Program-made: the position numbers and the translations under genes
NCBI GenBank assembly: GCA_963746665.1
Contig: CAVVBW010000003.1
Span: 325,022 to 389,021, forward strand
Length of the DNA stretch: 64,000 nt
Source of the DNA: an uncultured Acidobacteriaceae bacterium
GTDB lineage: Bacteria > Acidobacteriota > Terriglobia > Terriglobales > Acidobacteriaceae
Direction of reading: 5' to 3'
Notes under the pieces: generated by a model
What the model was told of the DNA's origin: nothing
Databases searched by the model: none
What the model saw: only the letters and a program-made list of their open reading frames with translations
Shown here: positions 1,785-64,000 of the stretch, one piece after another
Numbering within the stretch: the stretch's first letter is position 1
Layout: the number at the start of each line of letters is the position of its first letter

Positions 1785-3056
1785 ATGAGTGGAATCAGGC
1801 GGTTGAGTACAACTCTCCTCGATCGACGCACGCTCCTTCGCTCGGGATTGCTTGCGGCAGGCGCGGGCGCGGGGCGAGCCTTCGGCCTGAGCCCGGTTGA
1901 AGATGGCCAAAGCATCGGCGCGAATGCGCCCGAATGGATGAAGACGCCTGGCCGCGGATTTTCGTTCTATGGCGTGCCTTCCAAATGGCAGAACGGCGTG
2001 AAGCGTGCTCTACCGTCCGCGCCAGGCCGTCCCGGTACCGGGTCGTCCCGCACACCGCTAGAGTCTCTCGAAGGTACGATCACACCGAATGGGCTGCACT
2101 TCGAGCGGCATCACAACGGTGTGCCCGATATCGATCCGGACCAGCATGAGTTACTCATTCACGGGCTTGTGAAGCGGCCGCTCGCCTTTTCCGTAAAGAC
2201 ATTGTTGCGTTATCCAATGGTGACGGAAATCCGATTCATCGAATGCTCCGGGAATAGCGGGGGCTACGGTCAGGCGCAGCCGCAACAAACCACTGCAGGT
2301 GGGCTCAATGGACTCATTTCCTGTTCGGAGTGGACCGGCGTTCGCCTGTCGACGCTGCTCAAGGAAGTGGGGCTGGCGCCCGAGGCGAAGTGGGTGGTGG
2401 CCGAGGGCGCGGACTCCGCAGCCATGAGCCGGAGCGTGCCCATCGAGAAGTGTCTGGAGGACGCCATGGTGGCGCTCTATCAAAATGGCGAGGCGATCCG
2501 TCCGGAGCAGGGCTATCCGATGAGGCTCTTGCTTCCCGGCTTCGAGGGAAACACGAACGTCAAGTGGCTGCGCCGATTGAACGTCGTCCGAGAGCCGGTA
2601 GAAGCGAGGGATGAAACTTCCCACTACACGGAACTGATGCCGAATGGACGAGCGCGTCAGTACATGTTCCTCCAGGAAGTCAAGTCGATCATCGTGAAGC
2701 CGTCGTTCGGCATGGACCTGAATGGCCCGGGCCTCTACGAGGTATCGGGACTGGCCTGGTCGGGCGCCGGGAAGATCGCGAAGGTGGAAGTTTCCGTCGA
2801 CGGAGGCCGCACCTGGCGGCCGGCGGCTCTCGGCGCGCCGGTGCTGTCGAAAGCGCTCACCCGGTTTCGTCTGCCATGGCGCTGGGACGGACGGCCCTCT
2901 GTCCTCATGAGCCGTGCGACGGATGAGAAGGATACGACGCAACCGGCAAGGTCTGCATGGATAGCCCGATATGCGCCGGGTCAACCCTATCATTTCAACG
3001 GAATTCAAAGCTGGAGTGTGGATGTCAATGGGAAGGTCGCGAATGTCTATGTCTAA
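1785..3056 (+). CDS. molybdopterin-dependent sulfite dehydrogenase, SoxC/SorA-like (sulfite oxidase fold), Tat-exported
   Basis: Twin-arginine signal DRRTLLRSGLLAAGAGA. LHFERHHNGVPDID and the Moco-Cys context FIECSGNSG are typical of the SUOX family. Followed by a cytochrome c partner. Confidence 0.8.
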   Translation: MSGIRRLSTTLLDRRTLLRSGLLAAGAGAGRAFGLSPVEDGQSIGANAPEWMKTPGRGFSFYGVPSKWQNGVKRALPSAPGRPGTGSSRTPLESLEGTITPNGLHFERHHNGVPDIDPDQHELLIHGLVKRPLAFSVKTLLRYPMVTEIRFIECSGNSGGYGQAQPQQTTAGGLNGLISCSEWTGVRLSTLLKEVGLAPEAKWVVAEGADSAAMSRSVPIEKCLEDAMVALYQNGEAIRPEQGYPMRLLLPGFEGNTNVKWLRRLNVVREPVEARDETSHYTELMPNGRARQYMFLQEVKSIIVKPSFGMDLNGPGLYEVSGLAWSGAGKIAKVEVSVDGGRTWRPAALGAPVLSKALTRFRLPWRWDGRPSVLMSRATDEKDTTQPARSAWIARYAPGQPYHFNGIQSWSVDVNGKVANVYV

Positions 3057-4311: not shown

Positions 4312-5080
4312 CTAAATACCTTTGATTTCGCCGCCGTCCATGCGAAGCGATGCTCCGGTCATCCACTTTGCGGCCGGGGAGACCATGAAGCCGAGGAGTT
4401 CGGCGATCTCTTCCGGTTGCCCGTAGCGGCTGATGCCGGCTTCTTCCGGAAACTTCTTCATCGCTTCCTCAACACTCATCTTGTGCGCTGGCGCCCACTT
4501 CTCGAGGAAGGAGCGGCGGCGCCCAGTCATAACCGCCCCCGGCACAATACTGTTCACCTGAACGCCATCCTTAATCCCTTGTTCCGCGAACGCTTTCGCG
4601 AGAGCCGTAATTGCAGCGTTGGTCGCGGCAACAGCGGCGAAGGCCGGCTTAGGATCAAGCGCGGCGCTCCGGACATGAAAACCACGGAGCCCTGCGCCTG
4701 TTTCAGCGCATCCCATGCCCGAATCGTCAAACGGCGGGCACCGTGCAGTTTCAACTCCATGCCGGCGTTCCACTGTTCATCCGTCATCTCGAAGAGATCG
4801 ATCTGCGGTACGGCGCCAGCGATATTCAGAGCGCGTCGATTCGTCCAAAACGCTCAAGTGTAGCGTTGACCACAGTTTCCGACGCCTCGGTCCGGCTCAA
4901 GTCGAGTGCAAGAGGAAGCGCTTCGGCTCCCGCCTTTTTGACGGCAGCGGCAACTTCTTCAAGCTCCTTGGCATTGCGCGCCGCCAATACCACGGCGGAG
5001 AAGTCGCGGGCCAAACGAATAGCGGTGGAACGTCCAATGCCCTGGCTGGCTCCAGTCACAATTGCGACAGAATCCTTCAT
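4312..5080 (-). pseudogene. short-chain dehydrogenase/reductase split over three frames
   Basis: N-terminus (5080-4826) reads MKDSVAIVTGASQGIGRS...GRIDAL then stop. It continues in another frame as ALNIAGAVPQIDLFEMTDEQWN...GSVVFMSG. A third frame gives SAALDPKPAFAAVAATNAAITALAKAFAEQGIKDGVQVNSIVPG...MDGGEIKGI. Lesions lie near 4823-4826 and 4660-4675. Confidence 0.8.
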
Positions 5081-5166
5081 GATTTCCTCTCTATTGCGTT
5101 GGATAGATTGGATAGATTTGTAAATTGAGAAGTCGCCTCAAGCAACCGTCGCCTGCGCGGCTTCCC

Positions 5167-5862
5167 TTAAGCAAGCGTCGCTTGCGCGGCCTCAAGGATG
5201 ACGTCGACAACCTTGTCCGGCGCCGTAAGCAACGGAGTGTGATCCACCGGGAAAGACCGTACGGTCGCCTTCATGCGTTCCGCCATGAAGCGCTGCGTTT
5301 TCGGATTGATCATCCGGTCCTCTTCCGCGACGAGATACCACGCCGGTTTTGACTTCCACGCCGGAGCGGGAGCAGGTTCCTGAATGCTCTTGACTGAAAT
5401 CGGACGCTGCACTGCCCTCGACAACGCAATCTGCTCAGCCGAAGCGTTCTGGGCAAAGGCGTTGGCGAACCCTTCATCCGGCATCCAGATAAAGCCGTCC
5501 GCATCCGGAGCAAGCTGCGGGGCCTTGGCATGGGCTTCGTCTTTGTAAAAGACCTGAGCGACGGTCTCGCCTTCGTCCGGCGCCAAAGCGGCGACATACA
5601 CCAAAGCCTTCACCCGCTCATCGTTCGCCGTGGCAATGACTGCACCGGCATAGGCATGTCCGGCAACGATCACCGGGCCTTGCGTTCGTGCGAGGGTTCG
5701 CTTCAGAGCGGCCGCGTCGTCGCTCAGCGATGTTAAGGGGATCGGTGCAGCGATCACATTCAAGCCGCGTTCCTCGAGGGAGCGCACGACTGCCTGCCAG
5801 CTCGACCCGTCAGCCCACGCGCCGTGGACCACTACTACTGTCGCTTTCTCAGGAAAATTCAT
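5167..5862 (-). CDS. alpha/beta hydrolase
   Basis: 231-aa ORF. VVVVHGAWADGSSW and the nucleophile-elbow context VIVAGHAYAG are present. Size and pattern fit the alpha/beta hydrolase fold. Confidence 0.75.
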   Translation of the reverse strand: MNFPEKATVVVVHGAWADGSSWQAVVRSLEERGLNVIAAPIPLTSLSDDAAALKRTLARTQGPVIVAGHAYAGAVIATANDERVKALVYVAALAPDEGETVAQVFYKDEAHAKAPQLAPDADGFIWMPDEGFANAFAQNASAEQIALSRAVQRPISVKSIQEPAPAPAWKSKPAWYLVAEEDRMINPKTQRFMAERMKATVRSFPVDHTPLLTAPDKVVDVILEAAQATLA

Positions 5863-5919: not shown

Positions 5920-6769
5920 TCACGCAAGGAACTTTACAATTTGATGCGCGATGAATTCGCAGGAGTCCTCAAGCGCAAAGTGGCCGGTATCGAGCAGGTG
6001 AAGCTCCGCCTTCGGGATATCTCGCAAGTAGGCTTGCGCACCTTCGACAGTGAAGAAGGGATCGTTCTTTCCCCACACGATCAGCGTCTTCGGCTGCTTG
6101 CTCCGGAAGAATGCATGCCAGCCGTCGTAAAGCGCGAGATTCGATTGATAGTTGTGAAGCAGATTCAACTGGATCGCATCGTTGCCCGGACGATCGAGGA
6201 AGAACTGGTCCATGGTGTAGGAGTCAGGACTGATCCGTGAAACATCCTTGACCCCGTGTGTGTACTGAAAGACCGTGGTCTCTTTCTTGAGTAGCTCTCG
6301 CACCGGCTTCTCCGTCTCCGGGTTGCGGTTCACCCAGAACGGCTTCATCGGATCGAAGGCGGCGCCGATACCCTCGGCATAGGCGTTCCCGTTCTGGACC
6401 ACGATGCCCTCGATCGCGTCCTGATGTCTGGAAGCAATCCGATAGCCCACCGGCGCGCCGTAATCCTGGACATAGATGCTGAATTTTCTTCAGGCCGAGG
6501 ACTCCAAAGAGCAGTTCCTCGATAAACACGGCGAGATTGTCGAAGGTGTAGTCGAACACTCCTACATCCGGGGCATCACTGTGGCCAAAGCCAAGATAGT
6601 CCGGTGCAATCACGTGAAATGTGTCTGCCAGTTGCGGGATCAGGTCGCGGAACATATGCGACGAGCTAGGGAATCCGTGCAGCAGCACGATGGTTGGGGA
6701 GGCTTTCGAGCCGGCCTCGCGATAGAAGAGCTTGAGGCCTTGAACGGTCGCATGTTGAAACGTGGTCAT
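5920..6769 (-). pseudogene. alpha/beta hydrolase (epoxide hydrolase/haloalkane dehalogenase-like) with one frameshift
   Basis: N-terminus from ATG 6769 reads [45 protein letters not shown]...LGLKK. The protein continues only in another frame as [20 protein letters not shown]...GHFALEDSCEFIAHQIVKFLA (ORF 5920-6450). The shift sits at the run gaagaaaattc (minus strand), near 6470-6485. Confidence 0.85.
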
Positions 6770-6887: not shown

Positions 6888-7520
6888 ATGCGCGCAGCTC
6901 CTCCAGAAGCGCACGAGTGGATCGACGGGTTTCTGTTCGTGGCAAACAGGCCAATCCTGGACCTGCTCAATACGAAACCGGTCCTGGCAGACCGGCCCAC
7001 GGAATTGCTTCCGGATATTCGCGCGCTCGAAAGATGGTTGATTGCTTCGGGGATGGTGACTTCGGCTAAGGCTAAGGCCGCGCTGCGAAGCTCGAGTCAT
7101 TCAGCCGAAGCTGCGGCCTTCCTCAAAGAGCTCGTCGCCTTCAGGGAAAAATTGCGGGAGACCGTTCTCCGGATGGAGGGCGGATTGGCACCGGCGGAAG
7201 CCTTCCTCGCCGAGGTGAACTCACGGTTGACCGAACACCCTCTCCCCGTTTTGCTGCGCAAGCGAGAGGGAAGAGTCGTTCGCGAGACATCGTTAGAGCT
7301 TCGCCGGCCGGCCGACCTCTGGGCCCCGATCATCGACGCTACTGCAGAGCTTCTCGCGGAAACGGACTTATCGCGTGTTCGCAAGTGCGAATCATGCGTC
7401 ATTCATTTCTTTGACACCAGCAAAAAGGGCTCACGCCGATGGTGCAGCATGAATATCTGCGGCAACAAACTCAAGGTTGCCGCCTACCAGAGGAGGAAGC
7501 GCAGGGTAACAGGTCGCTGA
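6888..7520 (+). CDS. CGNR zinc-finger (ABATE-domain) putative regulator
   Basis: ORF 6840-7520 trimmed to ATG 6888. C-terminal [42 protein letters not shown] is the CGNR zinc-finger signature. Confidence 0.8.
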
Positions 7521-49171: not shown

Positions 49172-49555
49172 ATGCCTCCAGTCCATAGACAGTCCATGCC
49201 TCGATTGGCCGCCGTCGTTGTTGTGCTTTTTGGGCTCATGGCGCTGATGCCGCGAGCCGCCTTCGCACACGCGGTCCTGGTGACTTCGACACCCAAGGCG
49301 CAGAGCACCGTCAACGGCCCCGACCTCGATATTGTTCTCACCTACGATTCGCGAGTCGATGCGGCCCACTCGAGCGTGAGCTTGCTCATGCCCGATGGAA
49401 AGGTGAAGGCGCTCGTCATCGGCCCCCAATCCGCGCCCGCGTTGTTGTCCGCCAAGGCGACCGGCCTGACCAAGGGAGCCTATGTCCTGCGCTGGACCGC
49501 GCTCTCGAGTGACGGCCACATTACCCGAGGCGAGATCGCGTTCAATGTACAGTAG
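49172..49555 (+). CDS. copC: CopC-domain periplasmic copper-binding protein
   Basis: Signal peptide ending AAFA followed by HAVLVTSTP. GAYVLRWTALSSDGHITRGEIAF matches the CopC pattern. Start is ATG 49172, or TTG 49163. Confidence 0.8.
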   Translation: MPPVHRQSMPRLAAVVVVLFGLMALMPRAAFAHAVLVTSTPKAQSTVNGPDLDIVLTYDSRVDAAHSSVSLLMPDGKVKALVIGPQSAPALLSAKATGLTKGAYVLRWTALSSDGHITRGEIAFNVQ

Positions 49556-49673: not shown

Positions 49674-51290
49674 TTGATCTGGCTACTGCGCGATCTCGAT
49701 CTACTGAACGTGGTGTTGCGGGCGGCGATGCTCTCCTTCGAGGCATTGGTGCTCGGGGGCGTGGCATACCTGTGGTTGGTAGTCCTCCCCGCCAAGGCGG
49801 GCGCGACTGTCGAGCGCGTCTGCCGGAGGGGCATCGTCTTGGCGGCGGCCGCCTTGATCCTCAGCGAGGCCGCGGCGATCGCGGCCTCGAGCGCGATGCT
49901 GATGGCCGGCTCCAGCCTGCGGTTGAGCGACCTTGTCACCACCAAATTTTTTCTTGCCGGGTCGGCGGCCATCCTGACTGCCCTTTTGCTGGGGATTTCG
50001 GCCCGCGTGGGCGGCAGAAAGGCGCTTCTGGCGATGCCGCCGCTGAGCCTGCTCCTGCTCGCGGCCGCGGTCTCGACCAGCCACGCGGTTGCGCGCTTCG
50101 ATCACCGCGTGTTGTTGGCGGTTCTTACTGCGGCACATCATCTAGGCACGGCTGCTTGGATCGGAGCCATGCCGTTCCTGCTCATCTCGCTCGCCCGCGC
50201 GCCGGGCGTCGAGGAGGCGCGCCGCATGGTCAGGCGCTATTCCCAAATGGCGCTGCTGAGCGCTTCTACGCTCATCCTCGCGGGAATCGGACTCGCATGG
50301 TTCTATGTGGGAGCATGGAGCGGGCTGTATGGCACCGCCTATGGCGTCCTGCTGCTGGCCAAGATCTATCTGCTGCTGGTCATGATGGCGCTCGGCGCCG
50401 GCAACTGGTTCCTTGTGCGGCGGTTGAACACCGATCCCGAACCATTGCTGGCGCAGGCTGCGGCGTTTTGCTGAAGCGGAGATCGGGCTGGGATTTACCG
50501 TGGTGCTCGTCGCGGCTTCACTGACCTCTCAACCCCCTTCAGTGGACGTGGTGCAGGATCGGCTAACGCTGCCGGAGATCTATGCGCGCATGCATCCCAC
50601 CGTTCCCCGTCTGAGCAGCCCGCCGGCAGTCGCGCTCACCCCTGCCACGTCGATGGCCGTGGCCATTCGGGACAGCGAGTTCGAGCCTATGGCGGAGAGC
50701 GATGCCAATGACCGCGCCTGGTCGGAGTACAACCATCATTGGGCGGGCTTGATCGTTCTGGCCGCCGGGTTCTGGCCCTGCTCAGCCGGCTGCGCGCGCT
50801 CCGCTGGGCGCGCTTCTGGCCATTGACCTTCGCCGGGCTGGCGGTTTTTATCGTGCTGCGGGCCGATCCGGAAAATTGGCCCCTGGGTCCGCGTCCCTTT
50901 TGGGCCAGCTTCTCCGCCCCGGATGTCTTCGCGCATCGCGCCGCGGCCTTGCTGATCCTCTGCTTTGCCGCCTTCGAGTGCGCGGTGCAGGTGGGCAAGC
51001 TGCATGCGAAGTGGGCTACGCTGCTCTTTCCCGCGATGTGTGTCGTGGGCGCTGCACTCTTGCTGACGCATGACCATGTCACCCAAGACCTGAGAGAAGA
51101 GTTGTTCGCGGAGCTGAGCCACACGCCGATCGCTTTGCTTGGCGTGACCGCGGGCTGGGCACGTTGGTTGGAGCTGCGCCTGCCCAAAGATCATGCAGAC
51201 AGAGGTCGGGCGGCAAGGTTTGCCGGCTATCTTTGGCCCCTGTGCTTGGCCGCGGCCGGCTTGATTCTGCTGAATTACCGGGAGACCTGA
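49674..51290 (+). pseudogene. copD: CopD-family membrane protein with extra C-terminal membrane domain, split over three frames
   Basis: Frame 1 (49674-50474) ends ...LNTDPEPLLAQAAAFC then stop. The conserved continuation LRRFAEAEIGLGFTVVLVAASLTSQPP is in the +1 frame, which opens at 50428. A second shift near 50770 joins ...NHHWAGLIVLAAG to VLALLSRLRALRWARFWPLTFAG... (frame of ORF 50739-51290). Confidence 0.8.
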
Positions 51291-57565: not shown

Positions 57566-57602
57566 GAAAAACAGCCGGGGCCATGCTCCGGCTGTTTTTT
57601 TT
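57566..57602 (+). terminator. rho-independent terminator (bidirectional architecture)
   Basis: AAAAACAGCCGG-GGCCATGCT-CCGGCTGTTTTTTTTT, 20 nt after the NHL gene stop. The GC-rich stem CAGCCGG/CCGGCTG is flanked by an A-run and a T9 run. Confidence 0.85.
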
Positions 57603-57962
57603 CGAATCCGCACAGGTCCCCGAATTGATACGAAGCTTGCCTTTCGGCAGAGGCTGTGCATTGAGCAATCTTCTCGGTGTTCCCCGCAGAACGTGACAGC
57701 CGTAGGTCTCTGCGACAATGACCCGCGCAAGCAGGGAACCGGGATTCCGGGCTATCGCGTCTACTCTCCGGATTCGCTTGGCAAACTCAGCTTCGATTCC
57801 TGACAGACCTTTCCTGACGGTGCCTGGCACACTGCGGAAGAACGGAGGTCGCGGCTTTTCCTAAAGATCGGGCTCCCCGACGAGCCTGGGGTTGGCTCGC
57901 TGGCGTGGAAGTAAAGCCGCACTTCACTAAATCTTCCAGTGCACAGTAGCAGTGAAAATGCT

Positions 57963-58835
57963 CTAGGCGACCGTGCCCAAGCACCAGGTCAATGTTGCAT
58001 TTCCGGCCCCGGCATCCATCTGGTAGCTGCCAGTTCCGATTACCTCGCATCCGCCGCAGCGCATCAGTGTTGCCAACGACTGCTCCGAAAAGTAGTTGAT
58101 GTGTTCGTGCATCAAGTAGAGGCTGGCAGGGCGAAGCACGTGGCGAGCCAGGCCGGGGTGCGTCAAAGCTACGACCCCGAGTTGCGCGACCCTCCTGAGG
58201 ATCCTGGCCGGCCCGAATGGCGACTCGCGAGGAACCTCCAGGAACACCGTGCTTCCAGATGGGGCTGCCTTCACGATATCTTCCACCAGGAGACGTGGAA
58301 AACCGACATGCTCAAGTACATTGCTGTTGATAACGAGGTCGGCTTTGCATTCCGCCGGATCACTGGTCGCGGTCACCCCGTCAACAGCGGGAATGCCGGA
58401 AATGTCGTAGACGAATGCCGCTGCACCGTCTACTAGCCCACGCACTAGGTCGCCGCGGTCGCCGCCATAATCGAGGACGCGTCGTATCTTCCGTTCGCCG
58501 ACGTGCTGGCGAAGTATCGCGGCAAGTATCGAACGGCGGCGTTCGTAAGCGGTGTGCGAGGCCAGGCCGGCGTTGAACTTGACCGTGTACCACGGCTCCG
58601 AGGCGCAGCGCATTCGCTGATACTCTTCAGATCGGTATCCCGCGTAGAGACGAGCCGCCTCCCCGTCGTCAAGACGCGGATTGTAGAACATGAATCCGCA
58701 AGCTTGACACCGCACCACGGCGACCGAAAATGGCGTTCGATTCCATATCCGTTTCGCCAAAAACGGAGAAACGAGCGCCATGCGAAGTTTGCGAATCTCT
58801 CCATCACACACCACGCACTTGGAAACCTCAATCAT
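57963..58835 (-). CDS. class I SAM-dependent methyltransferase with N-terminal Cys4 zinc ribbon
   Basis: ORF 57963-58919 trimmed to ATG 58835 (AGGAAAGAG SD). CVVCDG...CQACGF zinc ribbon. Motif I VLDYGGDRGD. Confidence 0.8.
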   Translation of the reverse strand: MIEVSKCVVCDGEIRKLRMALVSPFLAKRIWNRTPFSVAVVRCQACGFMFYNPRLDDGEAARLYAGYRSEEYQRMRCASEPWYTVKFNAGLASHTAYERRRSILAAILRQHVGERKIRRVLDYGGDRGDLVRGLVDGAAAFVYDISGIPAVDGVTATSDPAECKADLVINSNVLEHVGFPRLLVEDIVKAAPSGSTVFLEVPRESPFGPARILRRVAQLGVVALTHPGLARHVLRPASLYLMHEHINYFSEQSLATLMRCGGCEVIGTGSYQMDAGAGNATLTWCLGTVA

Positions 58836-59028
58836 CTCTTTCCTCGATGTAGAACTGGCTGCATTGCGGGAAGCGGCACGAGCCCCGCTTTGGTGGCGGG
58901 TCTCGCCCGTGGCGCCCAATCAATATCCGGGGATTTATGCAACCAGTTCTAGCCAAATCTACCAGATTTGCAGAGCTCGCACGCCTCCCAAACGTTGCCT
59001 TTCACTCGAGCCTAAGAGACAATTTCGT

Positions 59029-59727
59029 ATGCATCTCGAAGCCCTCCGCTCCGCTGTGCTCGAGGCCAATCTTGAACTCGTCCGCCGTGGGCTGATCCTC
59101 TATACCTTCGGCAATGCCAGTGGCATTGACCGGGAGAGCGGACTGGTGGCCATCAAGCCGAGCGGTGTGCCGTACGAAGATCTGAAGGCCGCCGACCTGG
59201 TGCTTACCGACCTTGACGGCCAGATCGTCGAGGGTACGCTGCGTCCTTCGTCCGATCTGGCAACGCACGTGTTGCTTTACAGAGCTTTTCCGGCGATCGG
59301 CGGTGTCGTCCACACCCACTCGGAGTTCGCCACGGCCTGGGCGCAAGCCGGGCGGGAGATCCCCGCCTACGGTACCACTCACGCCGACTACTTTTACGGC
59401 CCGGTGCCCGTCACCGAAGAGTTGACCGCCGAAGAAGTTGGCGACGATTACGTTCTGAACACGGGCCACGCGATCGTGCGGCGGTTCAGCAAGCTCGACC
59501 CGCTCGCCGTTCCGGCTGTGCTAGTCGCCGGTCACGCTCCATTCTGCTGGGGGCCGACGCCGGCCGATGCGGCGCACAATGCTGTCGTTCTGGAGGCTGT
59601 TGCGCGAATGGCCTACTACACAACGACCTTGAACGCGGCATGCTCAGGCGTGGGCCAGCACTTGCTGGATCGCCACTATTTCCGCAAGCATGGCGCTGGC
59701 AAGACCTATGGACAGTCGAAGAGCTGA
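59029..59727 (+). CDS. class II aldolase/epimerase, L-ribulose-5-phosphate 4-epimerase-like
   Basis: ORF 58780-59727 trimmed to ATG 59029 (233 aa). YTFGNASGIDRESGLVAIKPSGVPYEDL, PSSDLATH and GGVVHTHSEFATAWAQ closely follow the AraD pattern. Confidence 0.8.
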   Translation: MHLEALRSAVLEANLELVRRGLILYTFGNASGIDRESGLVAIKPSGVPYEDLKAADLVLTDLDGQIVEGTLRPSSDLATHVLLYRAFPAIGGVVHTHSEFATAWAQAGREIPAYGTTHADYFYGPVPVTEELTAEEVGDDYVLNTGHAIVRRFSKLDPLAVPAVLVAGHAPFCWGPTPADAAHNAVVLEAVARMAYYTTTLNAACSGVGQHLLDRHYFRKHGAGKTYGQSKS

Positions 59728-59831
59728 TGGCAACTCCGTCATTATGCCTGCGCGCCGTTCGCTCGCAGCGATTCCTTGTCTGGCCCCATTCTGGCTGGCA
59801 ACGCTGTCCACGCTATAAGCCCATAACAACT

Positions 59832-60506
59832 CTAACGCTTCATGGCAAGACACTGCTGCCCGGAAAGCGGAAGGAAGGCTTCTGGCTGGTTTGAGAAAAA
59901 TTGCTGGAACGCCATTACGACTCCATTGAGTTGCGGATAGTCGTGAGAAAGAAGGATGCCGCCTGCATTCATCCGGGGCCAAAAGAAACCGAGTGCCGCC
60001 AGAGTCCCATCGTATAGGTCCATATCGAGATGCACGAAAGAGAATCGCAGGTGCTCGGCGAAATGACCGGTGTCCTCGGGAAAAAGACCCGGATAGAGCG
60101 TGATGCGATCTTTATAGCCTGCGAGGGTCTGCGCAACTTTCTCCCGAGAGCCGGCATACTCGCCCTGCTTGAGAAAATCTCCGGCTTCCGGCAACCCCGC
60201 GAAGGTATCGAAAAGGTGCAGGTGTTTGCCGTGCGAGGCATTGAGCATGACGGCGGCGCTGCCCCCGAGGTAGACCCCCACCTCAGCCATTTCGCCGGGA
60301 ACCTTCTGCGTCGCCTGTACAGCGTTGTGGAGTTCTATGCACTCCAACGGTGTCGTTGCGGTATAAGCCAGCGATCGCGCCTTCGTAATGCTCTTGAGGG
60401 CTGCGGCGCGGTCTGGATGCCGATAATTGGTCAGCCCGAAATGCAGCTTGCTTACCGCAACGTGAAAGCCCATCTGGAGTCGTGATTTGAAGAAATTGAG
60501 CGTCAT
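59832..60506 (-). CDS. TylF/MycF-family (macrocin-type) O-methyltransferase
   Basis: PGEMAEVGVYLGGSA, FVHLDMDLYDGT and GGILLSHDY match the TylF-family metal and SAM motifs. Confidence 0.75.
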   Translation of the reverse strand: MTLNFFKSRLQMGFHVAVSKLHFGLTNYRHPDRAAALKSITKARSLAYTATTPLECIELHNAVQATQKVPGEMAEVGVYLGGSAAVMLNASHGKHLHLFDTFAGLPEAGDFLKQGEYAGSREKVAQTLAGYKDRITLYPGLFPEDTGHFAEHLRFSFVHLDMDLYDGTLAALGFFWPRMNAGGILLSHDYPQLNGVVMAFQQFFSNQPEAFLPLSGQQCLAMKR

Positions 60507-60671
60507 TGCGCACCACTATATCACTCTCGGCACTCCTCGTTGCTCGCACTCGGGAGAATCCGCTACCGCCGCCGCCACACTATAGGTCCATAACACGCTC
60601 CACGATGTGACCTCAATTTCTGGCTTGGTAGAATTAGCGGTATTTAGGCACCGAGACCAAGGAGCACTTTT

Positions 60672-62178
60672 ATGCAAGATTTGAAGAAGCGGCCACTATT
60701 CATCTATGAAATGGCCAACAACCACATGGGCGATGTGGAGCACGGGATCCGCATAGTTCGGGAACTCAAGGAAGCTTCTAAGGGTTTCCCTTCGGATTCT
60801 GTGTGAAGTTGCAGTACCGTGACATCGACAGCTGTATTCATCCGGACTACCAGGGACGGTAAGACCTGAAGTATGTGAAGCGTTTCTCGGAAACGCGCCT
60901 GAGCTGGGAGCAATACAAGCAGATCAAGGACGCGATCGTCGATGCTGGATTTCTCTCGATGTGTACACCGTGGGATGAGCTGTCTGTCGACATGATTGTG
61001 GAGCATGGCTACGATTTTATGAAGGTGCCGAGCTGCTACATGGCGGACTGGCCGCTTCTCGAGCGCGTCGCCAAGTACGATCTGCCGATTGTCGCCTCGA
61101 CCGCAGGCGAGCCTTTTGAGGAGATCGACCGGGTGGTGAGCTTTTTCCGGCATCGCAATAAATCGCTGGCGATTATGCATTGCGTAGGCGAATATCCCTC
61201 GCCTGACGAGCACCTGCATCTGAGCCAGATCTCTCTGCTGAAGAAGAGCGTATCCGGGAATCGAGGTGGGCTACTCGACGCACGAACGGCCCGACAACTT
61301 TGCAGCGGTGAAGATTGCGATTGCGTTGGGGGCGACGCTGTTTGAGAAGCACACAGCAGTTGTGACCGAGAAATATGCGGTCAACACTTACAGCGCGACA
61401 CCTGACCAAGTGCGCAAATGGTTGCAGTCGGCCGCGAGTGCCCTGACGATGATTGGGGAGACGGCCAAGCGGTATCCGGCTCCTGCAGGCGAGGCGCAGG
61501 CTCTGCGCGACCTGGCGCGCGGCGTGTTTGCCAAGAAACCGGTCGCGGCTGGCGAGGTGGTGAAGCCGGACAATCTTTTCTATGCCATGCCGAATCTGCC
61601 AGGCCAACTAGTGGCGCAAGATCTGTCCAAGTACACCGAGTATGTGGCGATCGGTCCGATCGCATCCAATGGCCCGGTGATGGAAGCGAATGTGAAGAGG
61701 AGCGACCGGCGGCAGGAGGTTCTCGACATCGTGCGGGACGTGAAGGCACTCATCAAAAGGAGCAAGGTGCAGGTGCCGGGACAGTGCGAGCTTGAGATTT
61801 CGCACCACTATGGCATCGACAGATTCCGCGAGAGTGGACTGACGGCGATTACGGTTGTGAACCGCGACTACTGCAAGCGGCTTATGGTCGTGCTGCCGGG
61901 ACAAAAGCATCCCGAGCAGTGGCACAATTATAAGAATGAGACTTATCACATCCTGCACGGTGACGTCACCGTGGACTTGGGCGGCGCGAAGACGGCGCAC
62001 AAATCGAATGACATCGTGACCATTCCGCATGGCATCAAGCACTCTTTCTGGACAACCAACGGCGCGGTGATCGAGGAAGTATCCTCGGCTTACGCCGCAG
62101 GCGGATTCCTGGTATACGGATGAGTCGATTATGGCCAATCCAAACCGCAAAACCTTCGTCACCTATTGGCTGGAATAA
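60672..62178 (+). pseudogene. NeuB-family sialic-acid-type synthase fused to SAF and a sugar-isomerase-like cupin; four lesions
   Basis: ATG 60672 follows AAGGAG and gives MQDLKKRPLFIYEMANNHMGDVEHGIRIV...KGFP. There is a frameshift at about 60781-60803 into GFPFGFCVKLQYRD. An in-frame TAA lies at 60860-60862. A frameshift at about 61241-61252 leads into YPGIEVGYSTHERPDNFAAVKIAIALGATLFEKH. A frameshift at about 62088-62100 leads from EEVSSAY into ADSWYTDESIMANPNRKTFVTYWLE, whose TAA (62176-62178) overlaps the next ATG. Confidence 0.8.
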
Positions 62179-62727
62179 TGCGGACGATCGTCTGGGATGT
62201 GGACGACGTGTTGAACGACCTGATGTATCAGTGGTTTTCGCGGAGTTGGAGACAGGATCACCCCGCCGTGCGCGGTGGAATATGCAGGGCTGACGAGAAA
62301 ATCCTCCACACGTTTCGCTTGGCGCGACGCCGAGGAATATCTGGCTTCGATGGATGCTTTCCGCAAGACCGAGGCGGGCATTCACCTCACGCCGAATGCC
62401 GAGGTGCTAGAGTGGTTTGCGGTGCATGGCGCCAGATTTCGCCATATTGCGCTGACCGCGCGCCCGTTGGAGACGGCTCCCGAGGTCGCTGCGTGGGTCA
62501 TGCGGCACTTCGGTGCATGGATCCGATGTTTTGGCATCGTTCCGACGCGTACAACAGACGGGGTTCCAGTATACGACCGCGGTAAGGGAGATTACCTTCG
62601 CTGGCTGGGCAAGGGCGATGTGCTGATAGACGATGCGCAGGAGAATTTGCGGCAAGCGGCTGCGATCGGCATGAAGACTTTTGCCTGGCCTCAACCCTGG
62701 AACGATTCGCCAGCTGACCGCCGCTGA
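62178..62727 (+). pseudogene. HAD-like (deoxyribonucleotidase-type) phosphatase with a frameshift
   Basis: ATG 62178 gives MRTIVWDVDDVLNDLMYQWFSRSWRQDHPA (DxDD motif I). The sensible continuation VEYAGLT...RHIALTARPLETAPEVAAWVMRHFGAWIRCFGIVP...VLIDDAQENL...PQPWN is in another frame (ORF 62275-62727). The lesion lies near 62262-62272. Confidence 0.75.
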
Positions 62728-62763
62728 GATTCTGCAGGCACTCACGAATATGGCAGGCGAACC

Positions 62764-64000
62764 TTGATTAAACTATCAGACTACGTCACGCAATTTCTGG
62801 CTCATCGCAACCTCAGGCATGTATTCATGTTGACCGGGGGCGGCTGCATGCACCTGGTAGATTCCTTTGGCCGCCAGGAGGGGATGGAATATGTTTGCTG
62901 CCTGCATGAGCAGGCAGTTTCTTTTGCCACCCAGGCCTATGCGGAGTACACGAGCGACTTGAGCGCCGCTCTGGTAACGACGGGGCCCGGGGGCACCAAT
63001 GCCATGACCGGTCTGGCGGCTGCGTGGCTGGATTCGACAGCGTGCCTCTTCCTCTCCGGGCAGGTAAAGCGCGCCGACCTTTTGGCCGGACGCGGCGTGC
63101 GTTCGATGGGGCCACAGGAGATAGACATTATTGCCGTTGTGTCTCCGCTGACCAAGTACGCCAAGACCCTGGTCGAGCCGAACGATGTTCGTTACGAGCT
63201 GGAAAAGGCCGTCTATCTGGCGACAACGGGACGGCGCGGCCCGGTATGGCTGGATTTCCCGCTAGACGTGCAGGCAGCGATGGTGGACCAGAGCAAGCTG
63301 CGCGGATTCGTCCCCGAACCGGTTGCCGATGCGAGCGCCGGCATCAGGCAAAAGGTTGCCGCGGCTATCGAGTTGCTTAAAAAGGCGGAACGCCCGGTGT
63401 TGCTTGTCGGCAACGGGACCCGGCAGGCCCACCTGGAAGGATTGGTGGAAGACACGGTGAACCTGTTACAGGTTCCGACACTGCTGACATGGAAGTCCAT
63501 GGACATGCTGCCGGAGAACCATCCATATTTACGCCGGCCGGCCCGGATCAATCGCTTCTCGTGGATCCAACTTTACGCAACAGAATGCCGACTGGATTAT
63601 GGTGCTGGGGGCGCGGCTGGACATGCCGCAGATTGCGTTCAGCCATAAGAATTTTGCCCGAGGCGCAAAAAAAGTGCTGGTGGATGTCGATGCGAACGAG
63701 ATTCGGAAGTTCGATATGACTATCGATGTGGCGGTCCATGCGGATGCCAAGGACTTTCTGCGCGAGCTGCTCGCTCAGTTGAAGAACACCGTGCTGCCGC
63801 ACACGCCGGCATGGCTGAAGAAGGCGAAGGATTGGTTGACCAAGTATCCCGTGATTTTGCCGGAGTATTGGCAGGAGGACAGGGGAGTCGTCAATCCCTA
63901 TCTTCTGGTCGATGTGTTGTCGGAACAATGTACGCCGGAGGATGTTCTTGCTCCCGGAAGTTCGGGAGCGTGCAGCGATATCTTCCTGCAGTGCTTCCGA
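62764..64000 (+). pseudogene. thiamine-diphosphate-dependent enzyme (acetolactate synthase large-subunit-like / YerE-like), frameshifted, 3' end beyond the window
   Basis: TTG 62764 gives MIKLSDYVTQFLAHRNLRHVFMLTGGGCMHLVDS...TTGPGGTNAMTGLAAAW...LPENHP. This frame then runs into a stop at 63648. The conserved continuation YAGRPGSIASRGSNFTQQNADWIMVLGARLD...VLVDVDANEI... is in another frame and stays open to 64000. The lesion lies near 63524-63533. Confidence 0.75.

Follow-up and report, generated by a model that had tools for sequence, protein, structure and literature searches.

A stretch of 64,000 nucleotides (nt) from contig CAVVBW010000003.1 of an uncultured Acidobacteriaceae bacterium (assembly GCA_963746665.1, positions 325,022 to 389,021 of the forward strand; hereafter the window) carries near its 3' end a gene for a fusion protein, which combines a NeuB-type barrel, an SAF segment and a C-terminal cupin and whose reading frame is broken in this assembly. 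The gene occupies positions 60672–62178 of the plus strand and, once repaired, encodes 501 amino acids (aa), as judged from Pfam and tblastn analyses and from the identity of the repaired protein with the product of an intact copy on contig L084. A Shine-Dalgarno-like sequence (AAGGAG, 60659–60664, plus strand) lies 7 nt upstream of the ATG codon at 60672, in a region conserved in the related locus L001. The fusion gene is followed on the same strand by (i) a gene for a 196-aa HAD-like protein with an N-terminal WDVDDV motif (62178–62771) and (ii) the 5' two-thirds of a gene for a YerE/JanthE-like carboligase dependent on thiamine diphosphate (ThDP; about 600 aa; 62764–64000), the rest of which is cut off by the window end. 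Comparison with related loci revealed that these three genes form a conserved module, in which the fusion gene comes first.

Three-frame translation and the list of open reading frames (ORFs) resolved the gene into four collinear coding pieces, which extend from the ATG at 60672 to the TAA at 62176–62178. In a tblastn search, residues 1–40, 38–192, 191–475 and 476–501 of an intact 501-aa homologue (P0001) matched, in this order, positions 60672–60791 (frame 3), 60782–61246 (frame 2), 61242–62096 (frame 3) and 62098–62175 (frame 1), leaving zero residues uncovered. This tiling, together with the Pfam domains described below, bears out the original prediction, made from the nucleotide sequence alone, of a single NeuB–SAF–cupin protein of about 500 aa; the version stitched by hand at that time was one residue short of the true 501 aa.

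Relative to its intact homologues the frame is disrupted by three frameshifts and one stop codon, all of which were placed at the level of single bases by comparison with L084, an independent contig 99% identical to the window, and with eight further relatives. Alignments revealed that the first lesion is a 1-bp deletion within a run of C residues at 60788–60790 (CCC, in place of CCCC in L084), which causes a −1 frameshift after residue 40 and falls inside the interval 60781–60803 proposed earlier. The second is an in-frame TAA at codon 64 (60860–60862). The corresponding codon is CAA (Gln) in L084 and specifies Tyr or Phe in more distant homologues; the stop codon thus reflects a C>T substitution and not an indel, in agreement with the original prediction. 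The third lesion is a C inserted at 61249, which changes AGG, coding for the invariant Arg193, to AGCG, and the fourth a G inserted at 62097 (GCC-G-CAG), 26 codons ahead of the stop codon; each produces a +1 frameshift. All four defects had been predicted with the correct type and at these positions or no more than a few bases away.

Past the fourth lesion the frame reads ...QADSWYTDESIMANPNRKTFVTYWLE and ends at the TAA at 62176–62178, which overlaps the ATG of the following gene (62178–62180) by one base (TAATG, 62176–62180). The same one-base overlap is present in L084 and in the related loci L001, L003 and L012. The junction is therefore ancestral and no product of chance, and the C-terminus deduced from it, with its coupled stop and start codons, is real.

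A reading of the lesions as marks of a decaying gene became doubtful on comparison with L084. This contig, from the Logan assembly of run ERR10755945, was retrieved with the product of a methyltransferase gene of the window as bait. It matches the window base for base over positions 57595–60786 and carries an intact 501-aa fusion gene, an intact gene of the 196-aa protein and an intact start of the ThDP enzyme gene; the sole difference in the 3.2 kb upstream, near the end of L084, is the length of a T homopolymer (window position 57594; 8 versus 9 residues). From position 60787 onwards, 45 substitutions (1.6% over the stretch) and the indels separate the two sequences. Thirteen of these substitutions fall within the fusion gene, i.e. 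the nonsense change and 12 others, every one of which is synonymous (P = 7e-8 under neutrality). Among the alignment columns conserved in at least 97% of sequences the repaired protein deviates at one site only, which equals the family median (111 homologues), and neither of these two tests gave any sign of relaxed constraint. None of the lesions is present in L084, which is the sole independent contig available for the locus and represents a slightly different haplotype 3' of 60787. We conclude from these comparisons that the lesions are most probably consensus errors or, at most, very recent damage, and that strong purifying selection has acted on the allele, which is no old pseudogene.

The damage spans the whole operon. 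The gene of the HAD-like protein, intact in L084, L012 and L024, is interrupted by five single-base indels (insertions at 62269, 62293, 62709 and 62756, and one base missing after 62330), and the ThDP enzyme gene contains at least one, an extra base near 63527 that is unique to the window and at which the tblastn alignment splits (approximately 63530–63549). The region 60788–63527 thus holds nine indels unique to the window, all of 1 bp and seven of them insertions, against 0–3 in the relatives. Similar defects were detected in other parts of the window. A gene for a short-chain dehydrogenase/reductase (SDR; 4312–5130, minus strand) is split over three frames by two frameshifts, an alpha/beta-hydrolase gene (5920–6760, minus strand) is divided between two frames by one frameshift near 6480, and a gene for a CopD-like copper-resistance membrane protein (49674–51290, plus strand) contains two, near 50450 and 50770. 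Since the SDR, hydrolase and CopD-like genes are also frameshifted, the damage is not specific to one pathway. An even spread of errors over the whole window was rejected, because ORFs of 2.0–2.9 kb in other regions are intact; given the local lesion rate, the probability of this is at most about 1e-3 for each of them.

The surroundings of these additional genes were also inspected. The broken SDR and alpha/beta-hydrolase genes flank an intact gene for a 231-aa hydrolase (5167–5862), and an intact CopC gene (49172–49555) lies upstream of the CopD-like gene. A short independent contig found via CopC (L085) stops at the start of the CopD-like gene, before its frameshifts, which looks like a break of the assembly graph at that point. 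Exact-protein look-ups for further independent contigs, performed for window positions 5167–5862, 1785–3056 and 6888–7520, returned no record.

We consider it probable that the four lesions of the fusion gene, as well as the six further single-base indels of the operon, are consensus errors. The transition at 60787, just over 100 bp downstream of the start codon of the fusion gene, is sharp: 100% identity to L084 gives way to a divergence of 1.6% that is mostly synonymous. This pattern suggests either recombination or a border between strain haplotypes, at what looks like a strain-variable glycan locus. Past this point fewer reads, or reads of mixed origin, may have entered the consensus, and the errors probably arose in this variable stretch of a metagenome assembly from long reads. 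Among the best 80 related loci (described below), frame breaks in the NeuB–cupin or the ThDP enzyme gene were found in 4 of the 23 that derive from metagenome-assembled genomes (MAGs) of the "MFD*.bin" series and in 0 of the 57 others (P = 0.006); MFD MAGs are Nanopore-only Flye assemblies polished by one round of Medaka (PMC12313526). The four frame-broken MAGs of this series (L004, at approximately 13131; L010; L015; and L065, approximately 600 nt into the aligned slice) have single-base breaks of their own.

Several observations weigh against consensus errors. L084 represents another haplotype 3' of 60787, and therefore provides no direct proof of an intact frame in the allele of the window itself. 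Moreover, a C>T nonsense change and insertions mostly outside homopolymers are unlike the classic pattern of Nanopore errors, and frame breaks in three adjacent genes could reflect the real loss of one pathway. A genuine and very recent inactivation, in which the strain lost the entire operon by real mutations, e.g. as a result of selection acting on a surface glycan, would account for the concentration of ten lesions in three adjacent co-transcribed genes just downstream of 3.2 kb identical to L084, and for the nonsense substitution among them. Glycan loci are, in addition, often lost or swapped between strains, and the downstream haplotype is itself a natural allele, the majority of its differences from L084 being synonymous and several being common to other relatives. 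This explanation nevertheless appears somewhat unlikely. Natural decay in bacteria is characterized by substitutions that far outnumber indels and by a preference for deletions of varied length. Nine indels set against few neutral substitutions, all of one base pair and mostly insertions, are far from such known mutation spectra, and the 12 substitutions that the fusion gene holds besides the stop codon are all synonymous. Furthermore, clusters of the same kind occur in the unrelated SDR, hydrolase and CopD-like genes, and the breaks observed in the relatives are confined to Nanopore-only MAGs.

Programmed recoding, by which frameshifting or readthrough would leave the gene functional as it stands, has nothing in its favour beyond the frameshifts themselves. 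It would require three shifts, in both directions, plus readthrough of a stop codon, at sites that carry no slippery or conserved recoding motifs, while all homologues, including the 99% identical L084 copy, are encoded in a single frame; we therefore regard it as exceedingly improbable. Phase variation was also rejected, as just one of the lesions is located in a homopolymer, which is only 3–4 bases long.

Pfam analysis of the repaired protein identified the NeuB domain (PF03102) at residues 44–264 (138.2 bits, cut-off 22.1), the SAF domain at residues 283–342 (24.6 bits, cut-off 21) and Cupin_2 at residues 404–461 (32.3 bits, also above its cut-off). The first two follow each other in the same order, i.e. 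a TIM-barrel NeuB and then an SAF (antifreeze-like) domain, as in the phosphoenolpyruvate (PEP)-dependent ulosonic acid synthases of the NeuB family, represented by structures of Neisseria meningitidis NeuB (1xuu), Campylobacter jejuni PseI (8h2c), Bacillus subtilis SpsE (1vli) and the uncharacterised stand-alone "SpsE" of Chromobacterium violaceum (3g8r). The last of these is the closest: it was the best PDB match of the NeuB–SAF part by sequence (E=8.5e-121), with 51–52% identity over 336–338 aligned columns in sequence and fold searches. Two His residues, H204 of the STHE motif and H227 of the EKH motif, are invariant among 28 homologues, and the window protein retains both motifs (VGYSTHE and FEKH); we take these residues to be the equivalents of His215 and His236 of N. 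meningitidis NeuB. The scores against the equivalog models of N-acetylneuraminate synthase (TIGR03569; 121, cut-off 399.65) and pseudaminic acid synthase (TIGR03586; 111.8, cut-off 340.25) were far too low, which indicates that the fusion is neither a Neu5Ac synthase nor a pseudaminic acid synthase. It differs from the NeuB-family synthases, moreover, in its additional C-terminal cupin of approximately 150 aa and in that no CMP-activating enzyme is linked to it in the loci examined.

The C-terminal 159 residues gave as best PDB sequence match the D-lyxose isomerase YdaE of B. subtilis (2y0o, E=1.5e-6), followed by L-ribose isomerases and the D-lyxose isomerase of Thermofilum. The fold search with the whole protein was dominated by matches to NeuB and KDO8PS and was uninformative on the cupin. 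An AlphaFold model of the cupin alone was therefore used (mean pLDDT 75), which aligned over the whole domain with 2y0o (TM 0.71 over 149 columns) and 7nzp (TM 0.64–0.65). These were the only PDB folds to cover the entire cupin including its N-terminal helix, and the remaining cupins matched the barrel core alone, with TM values at or below about 0.56. Both the sequence match and the model thus point to a resemblance to D-lyxose/D-mannose isomerases, as was originally recognised; the domain may work like these enzymes and is at most a putative member of their family.

The metal ligands of 2y0o, which we take to be H69, H71, E82 and H137, align with Q416, H418, E423 and H457 of the fusion protein, each invariant among the homologues. 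D-lyxose/D-mannose isomerases (2y0o; Thermofilum 7nzo/7nzp) and L-ribose isomerases (3ww1) resemble the cupin in the fold of its model and in the three aligned ligands H418, E423 and H457. They differ in being free-standing enzymes, whereas the cupin, whose isomerase activity is putative, is fused to a synthase.

A protein search identified 4,929 relatives of the fusion. Over 100 of the best 120 matches are intact 501-aa proteins with an identical domain set and 70–90% identity. Among GTDB representatives (one genome per species), a relative is encoded in 518 stretches, and the best 80 of these, which were used as the related loci throughout this study, align essentially over the full length of the protein (from residues 1–10 to residues 479–501). 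They are distributed among Acidobacteriota, Verrucomicrobiota, Planctomycetota, Pseudomonadota (e.g. Pseudomonas capeferrum WCS358 and Pelomonas lactea), Nitrospirota (Nitrospiraceae), Thermodesulfobacteriota, Patescibacteria and others. The cupin alone, compared with 1.84 billion representative proteins, retrieved no more than 429 clusters. Among the best 150 matches, roughly one in two is a fusion of approximately 500 aa with the domain at residues ~340–480, and the others (100–300 aa) are stand-alone cupins or contig-end fragments. Such proteins already bear generic names in databases, namely "N-acetylneuraminate synthase family protein" (NCBI) and [quoted passage not shown] (JGI).

The gene of the window thus adds one more member, with a frame disrupted in this assembly, to a large, widespread and database-annotated family, and its architecture is not new. 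The original prediction had regarded the fusion as undescribed, and on this view it would be an unusual architecture, seen here only as a decaying relic. A literature search, in which no publication on the fusion was found, is consistent with that view. Nevertheless, homologues that are intact over the full length and have their domains in this order, the existence of which the prediction had left to be checked, number in the hundreds in the 518 species-level genomes of many phyla and already have names; about half of the best cupin matches are fusions of the same size; and a stand-alone NeuB–SAF relative even has a crystal structure (3g8r). The idea of an undescribed rarity is, accordingly, very improbable.

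Analysis of the genetic neighbourhood of the 80 related loci revealed that a gene for a ThDP enzyme of about 600 aa, whose product matches TPP_enzyme_N/M/C as do the homologues of the window gene, is present in 76 of them, nearly always directly downstream of the fusion gene, and that the 196-aa protein is encoded between the two in 51 of 80. The best PDB matches of the ThDP enzyme are JanthE (8rph, 380–425 bits) and PpYerE (5ahk), YerE-like carboligases that join alpha-keto acids to ketones (PMC12188165, PMC12247030). We also detected, at distances of up to 10 kb from the fusion gene, genes for (i) RfbH/E1 (54/80), (ii) CDP-glucose 4,6-dehydratase (57/80), (iii) glucose-1-phosphate cytidylyltransferase (58/80) and (iv) an SDR (59/80). 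The three CDP-sugar enzymes exceed the NCBIfam equivalog cut-offs in the locus of P. capeferrum (L074), and RfbH does so in that of Occallatibacter savannae (L024) as well. In the clade of the window the module is flanked by methyltransferase genes, and in the window and in L004 also by a gene for an AraD-type epimerase.

For seven diverse loci, all 132 neighbouring ORFs (±7–10 kb) were scanned with Pfam, and families matched by at least two ORFs were counted. Neither the CMP-ulosonate synthetase family (CTP_transf_3) nor classical aldolase families were among them, and CTP_transf_3 was also not found within ±7–10 kb of the fusion gene in L002, L003, L024 and L074. JanthE-type clusters, in turn, carry CDP-sugar genes, and a NeuB–cupin gene was found in none of 80 loci of this type (0/80), by which the JanthE gene was rejected as a neighbour of the fusion. 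The occurrence of such clusters without the fusion suggests that the latter may be an optional module for donor supply.

These data allow a tentative function to be proposed, every catalytic step of which we infer from gene neighbourhoods and domains. In the first step, the D-lyxose-isomerase-like cupin would turn a ketose into an aldose; it is plausible that, being on the same chain, it feeds this aldose to the synthase. The NeuB barrel would then join the aldose to PEP, with the formation of a 3-deoxy-2-ulosonic acid, i.e. an alpha-keto acid, which the adjacent ThDP carboligase would decarboxylate, attaching the remainder to a keto-sugar (in most lineages presumably a CDP-3,6-dideoxy-4-ketohexose). 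The predicted product is a sugar with a long acyl branch destined for a surface glycan, and a phosphatase may act somewhere between the steps. According to this scheme, NeuB–SAF–cupin proteins may make the donor in branched-sugar pathways of a widespread class that has yet to be described, a possibility that we put forward with reserve. The resulting compounds might, with the same reserve, be C-branched sugars similar to gastriose or caryophyllose and carried on surface glycans, perhaps including the flagellin of P. capeferrum, and the pathway class could tentatively be extended to Acidobacteriota, Verrucomicrobiota, Planctomycetota and Pseudomonadota.

The proposed donor is of a known type. 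The YerE homologues ErwE, MMAR_2332 and MyGE were shown by Steitz et al. to accept as donors gamma-hydroxy alpha-keto acids, which serve the formation of erwiniose, caryophyllose and gastriose and are made by an aldolase encoded in the cluster (PMC9306805). Condensation of PEP with an aldose by a NeuB-type enzyme yields an acid of this kind, which fits a role of the fusion in donor supply, as does the fact that neither classical aldolases nor the CMP-ulosonate synthetase family were among the recurrent families of the seven loci. The described clusters of acyl-branched sugars comprise those of yersiniose (YerE/YerF), erwiniose (ErwE with the aldolase ErwI), caryophyllose (MMAR_2332 with MMAR_2331) and gastriose (MyGE with MygI) (PMC9306805, PMC12247030). 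The NeuB–cupin loci resemble them in that a YerE-like ThDP carboligase adjoins an enzyme forming C–C bonds and able, as predicted here, to give a gamma-hydroxy alpha-keto acid, and in that genes for CDP-3,6-dideoxy-4-ketohexose synthesis and an SDR reductase are located nearby in most of the related loci. They differ in the putative donor-forming enzyme, which is a PEP-dependent NeuB–cupin fusion instead of a pyruvate aldolase, and in the window's own clade, which has no CDP-sugar genes nearby.

Several points argue against the proposed function. The first metal-ligand His of the isomerases is replaced in the cupin by an invariant Gln (Q416), so that three of the four ligands are kept. The score of the protein against Lyx_isomer (PF07385) is 17.7 bits, below the Pfam cut-off of 20.8; a precomputed match to this family is on record for a few homologues. 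No paper characterising the NeuB–cupin family biochemically was found in the literature search. CDP-sugar genes were not found in the 60 kb of the window upstream of the module, the window ending inside the ThDP enzyme gene, and they are absent within ±10 kb in the closest relatives (L004–L006 and L012).

With regard to function alone, the gene linkage can also be explained by NeuB acting after the ThDP enzyme, as in the pathways of pseudaminic and legionaminic acid. A CDP-linked branched deoxysugar would be freed, a step for which the NT5C-like protein is a candidate. The cupin would adjust this sugar and NeuB would join it to PEP, and the free branched nonulosonic acid so formed would be built into the glycan. 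The NeuB homologues of known pathways (PseI, LegI) indeed use sugars freed from their nucleotide, and the linked 196-aa protein is weakly nucleotidase-like (NT5C, 18–19.6 bits, under the cut-off of 24.8). To our knowledge, however, all known nonulosonic acid pathways require a CMP-ulosonate synthetase, and CTP_transf_3 was neither among the families with at least two ORFs in the seven loci nor found within ±7–10 kb in L002, L003, L024 and L074. Together with the scores of the protein, which are far under the equivalog cut-offs of both NeuB and PseI, this renders the reverse order of reactions unlikely. A NeuB-type synthase located beside a small HAD-type phosphatase is familiar from Bacteroides thetaiotaomicron, in which Kdn-9-phosphate synthase adjoins Kdn-9-phosphate phosphatase. 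Unlike the fusion module, this pair has neither a cupin nor a ThDP partner, and the 196-aa protein of the module matches the HAD family NT5C only below threshold.

Taken as a whole, it appears reasonably likely that the broken gene is the first gene of a conserved module and a member of an annotated family, with lesions of the error type and a mechanism of the kind deduced above. The broken gene itself is ordinary and, as a pseudogene, of little weight. It does illustrate that clusters of single-base indels in metagenome-derived sequences can mimic gene decay, and that comparison with an independent contig, combined with a count of synonymous and non-synonymous changes, reveals such false decay. 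Of real interest is only the tight association of the family, across hundreds of species, with a YerE-like ThDP carboligase, as deduced from gene neighbourhoods. If the proposed function is true, it would (i) explain the source of the side chains in some long-branched bacterial sugars, (ii) suggest which donors ThDP enzymes of a class under development as biocatalysts use physiologically and (iii) predict that the glycans of phyla abundant in soil contain unusual sugars.

Two further intact genes lie just upstream of the module in the window. The first (59029–59727, plus strand) encodes an AraD-type L-ribulose-5-phosphate 4-epimerase/class II aldolase (NCBIfam NF006047, 334.9, cut-off 257), which is a possible supplier of a pentulose for the lyxose-isomerase-like cupin. 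It was rejected as a part of the conserved module, since it is linked to the fusion in just 2 of the 80 related loci. The second (59832–60506, minus strand) is divergent from the fusion gene and encodes the TylF-type methyltransferase (PF05711, PF13578) that served as bait for L084. At this site several close relatives have a second, stand-alone gene of the NeuB family (343–351 aa), located divergently upstream of the fusion gene (L001, 412–1445, minus strand; L003, 305–1360, minus strand; and the contig of P0004); in L001 it appears to be split into three called genes.

In P. capeferrum WCS358 (L074, 2711–19554) the module resides in a flagellar region, beside fliD and fleQ. These two genes are followed by those for glucose-1-phosphate cytidylyltransferase, CDP-glucose 4,6-dehydratase, RfbH, the NeuB–cupin protein, the ThDP enzyme, an HAD_2 protein, methyltransferases and a pyruvyl transferase, a setting that hints at a branched sugar as a modification of flagellin. 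Alignment with 8rph revealed that the ThDP-binding motif, which in JanthE has the unusual form CDG, reads SDG at the same place in the NeuB–cupin-linked enzyme of this strain. This difference suggests that NeuB-linked ThDP enzymes may form a subgroup of their own.

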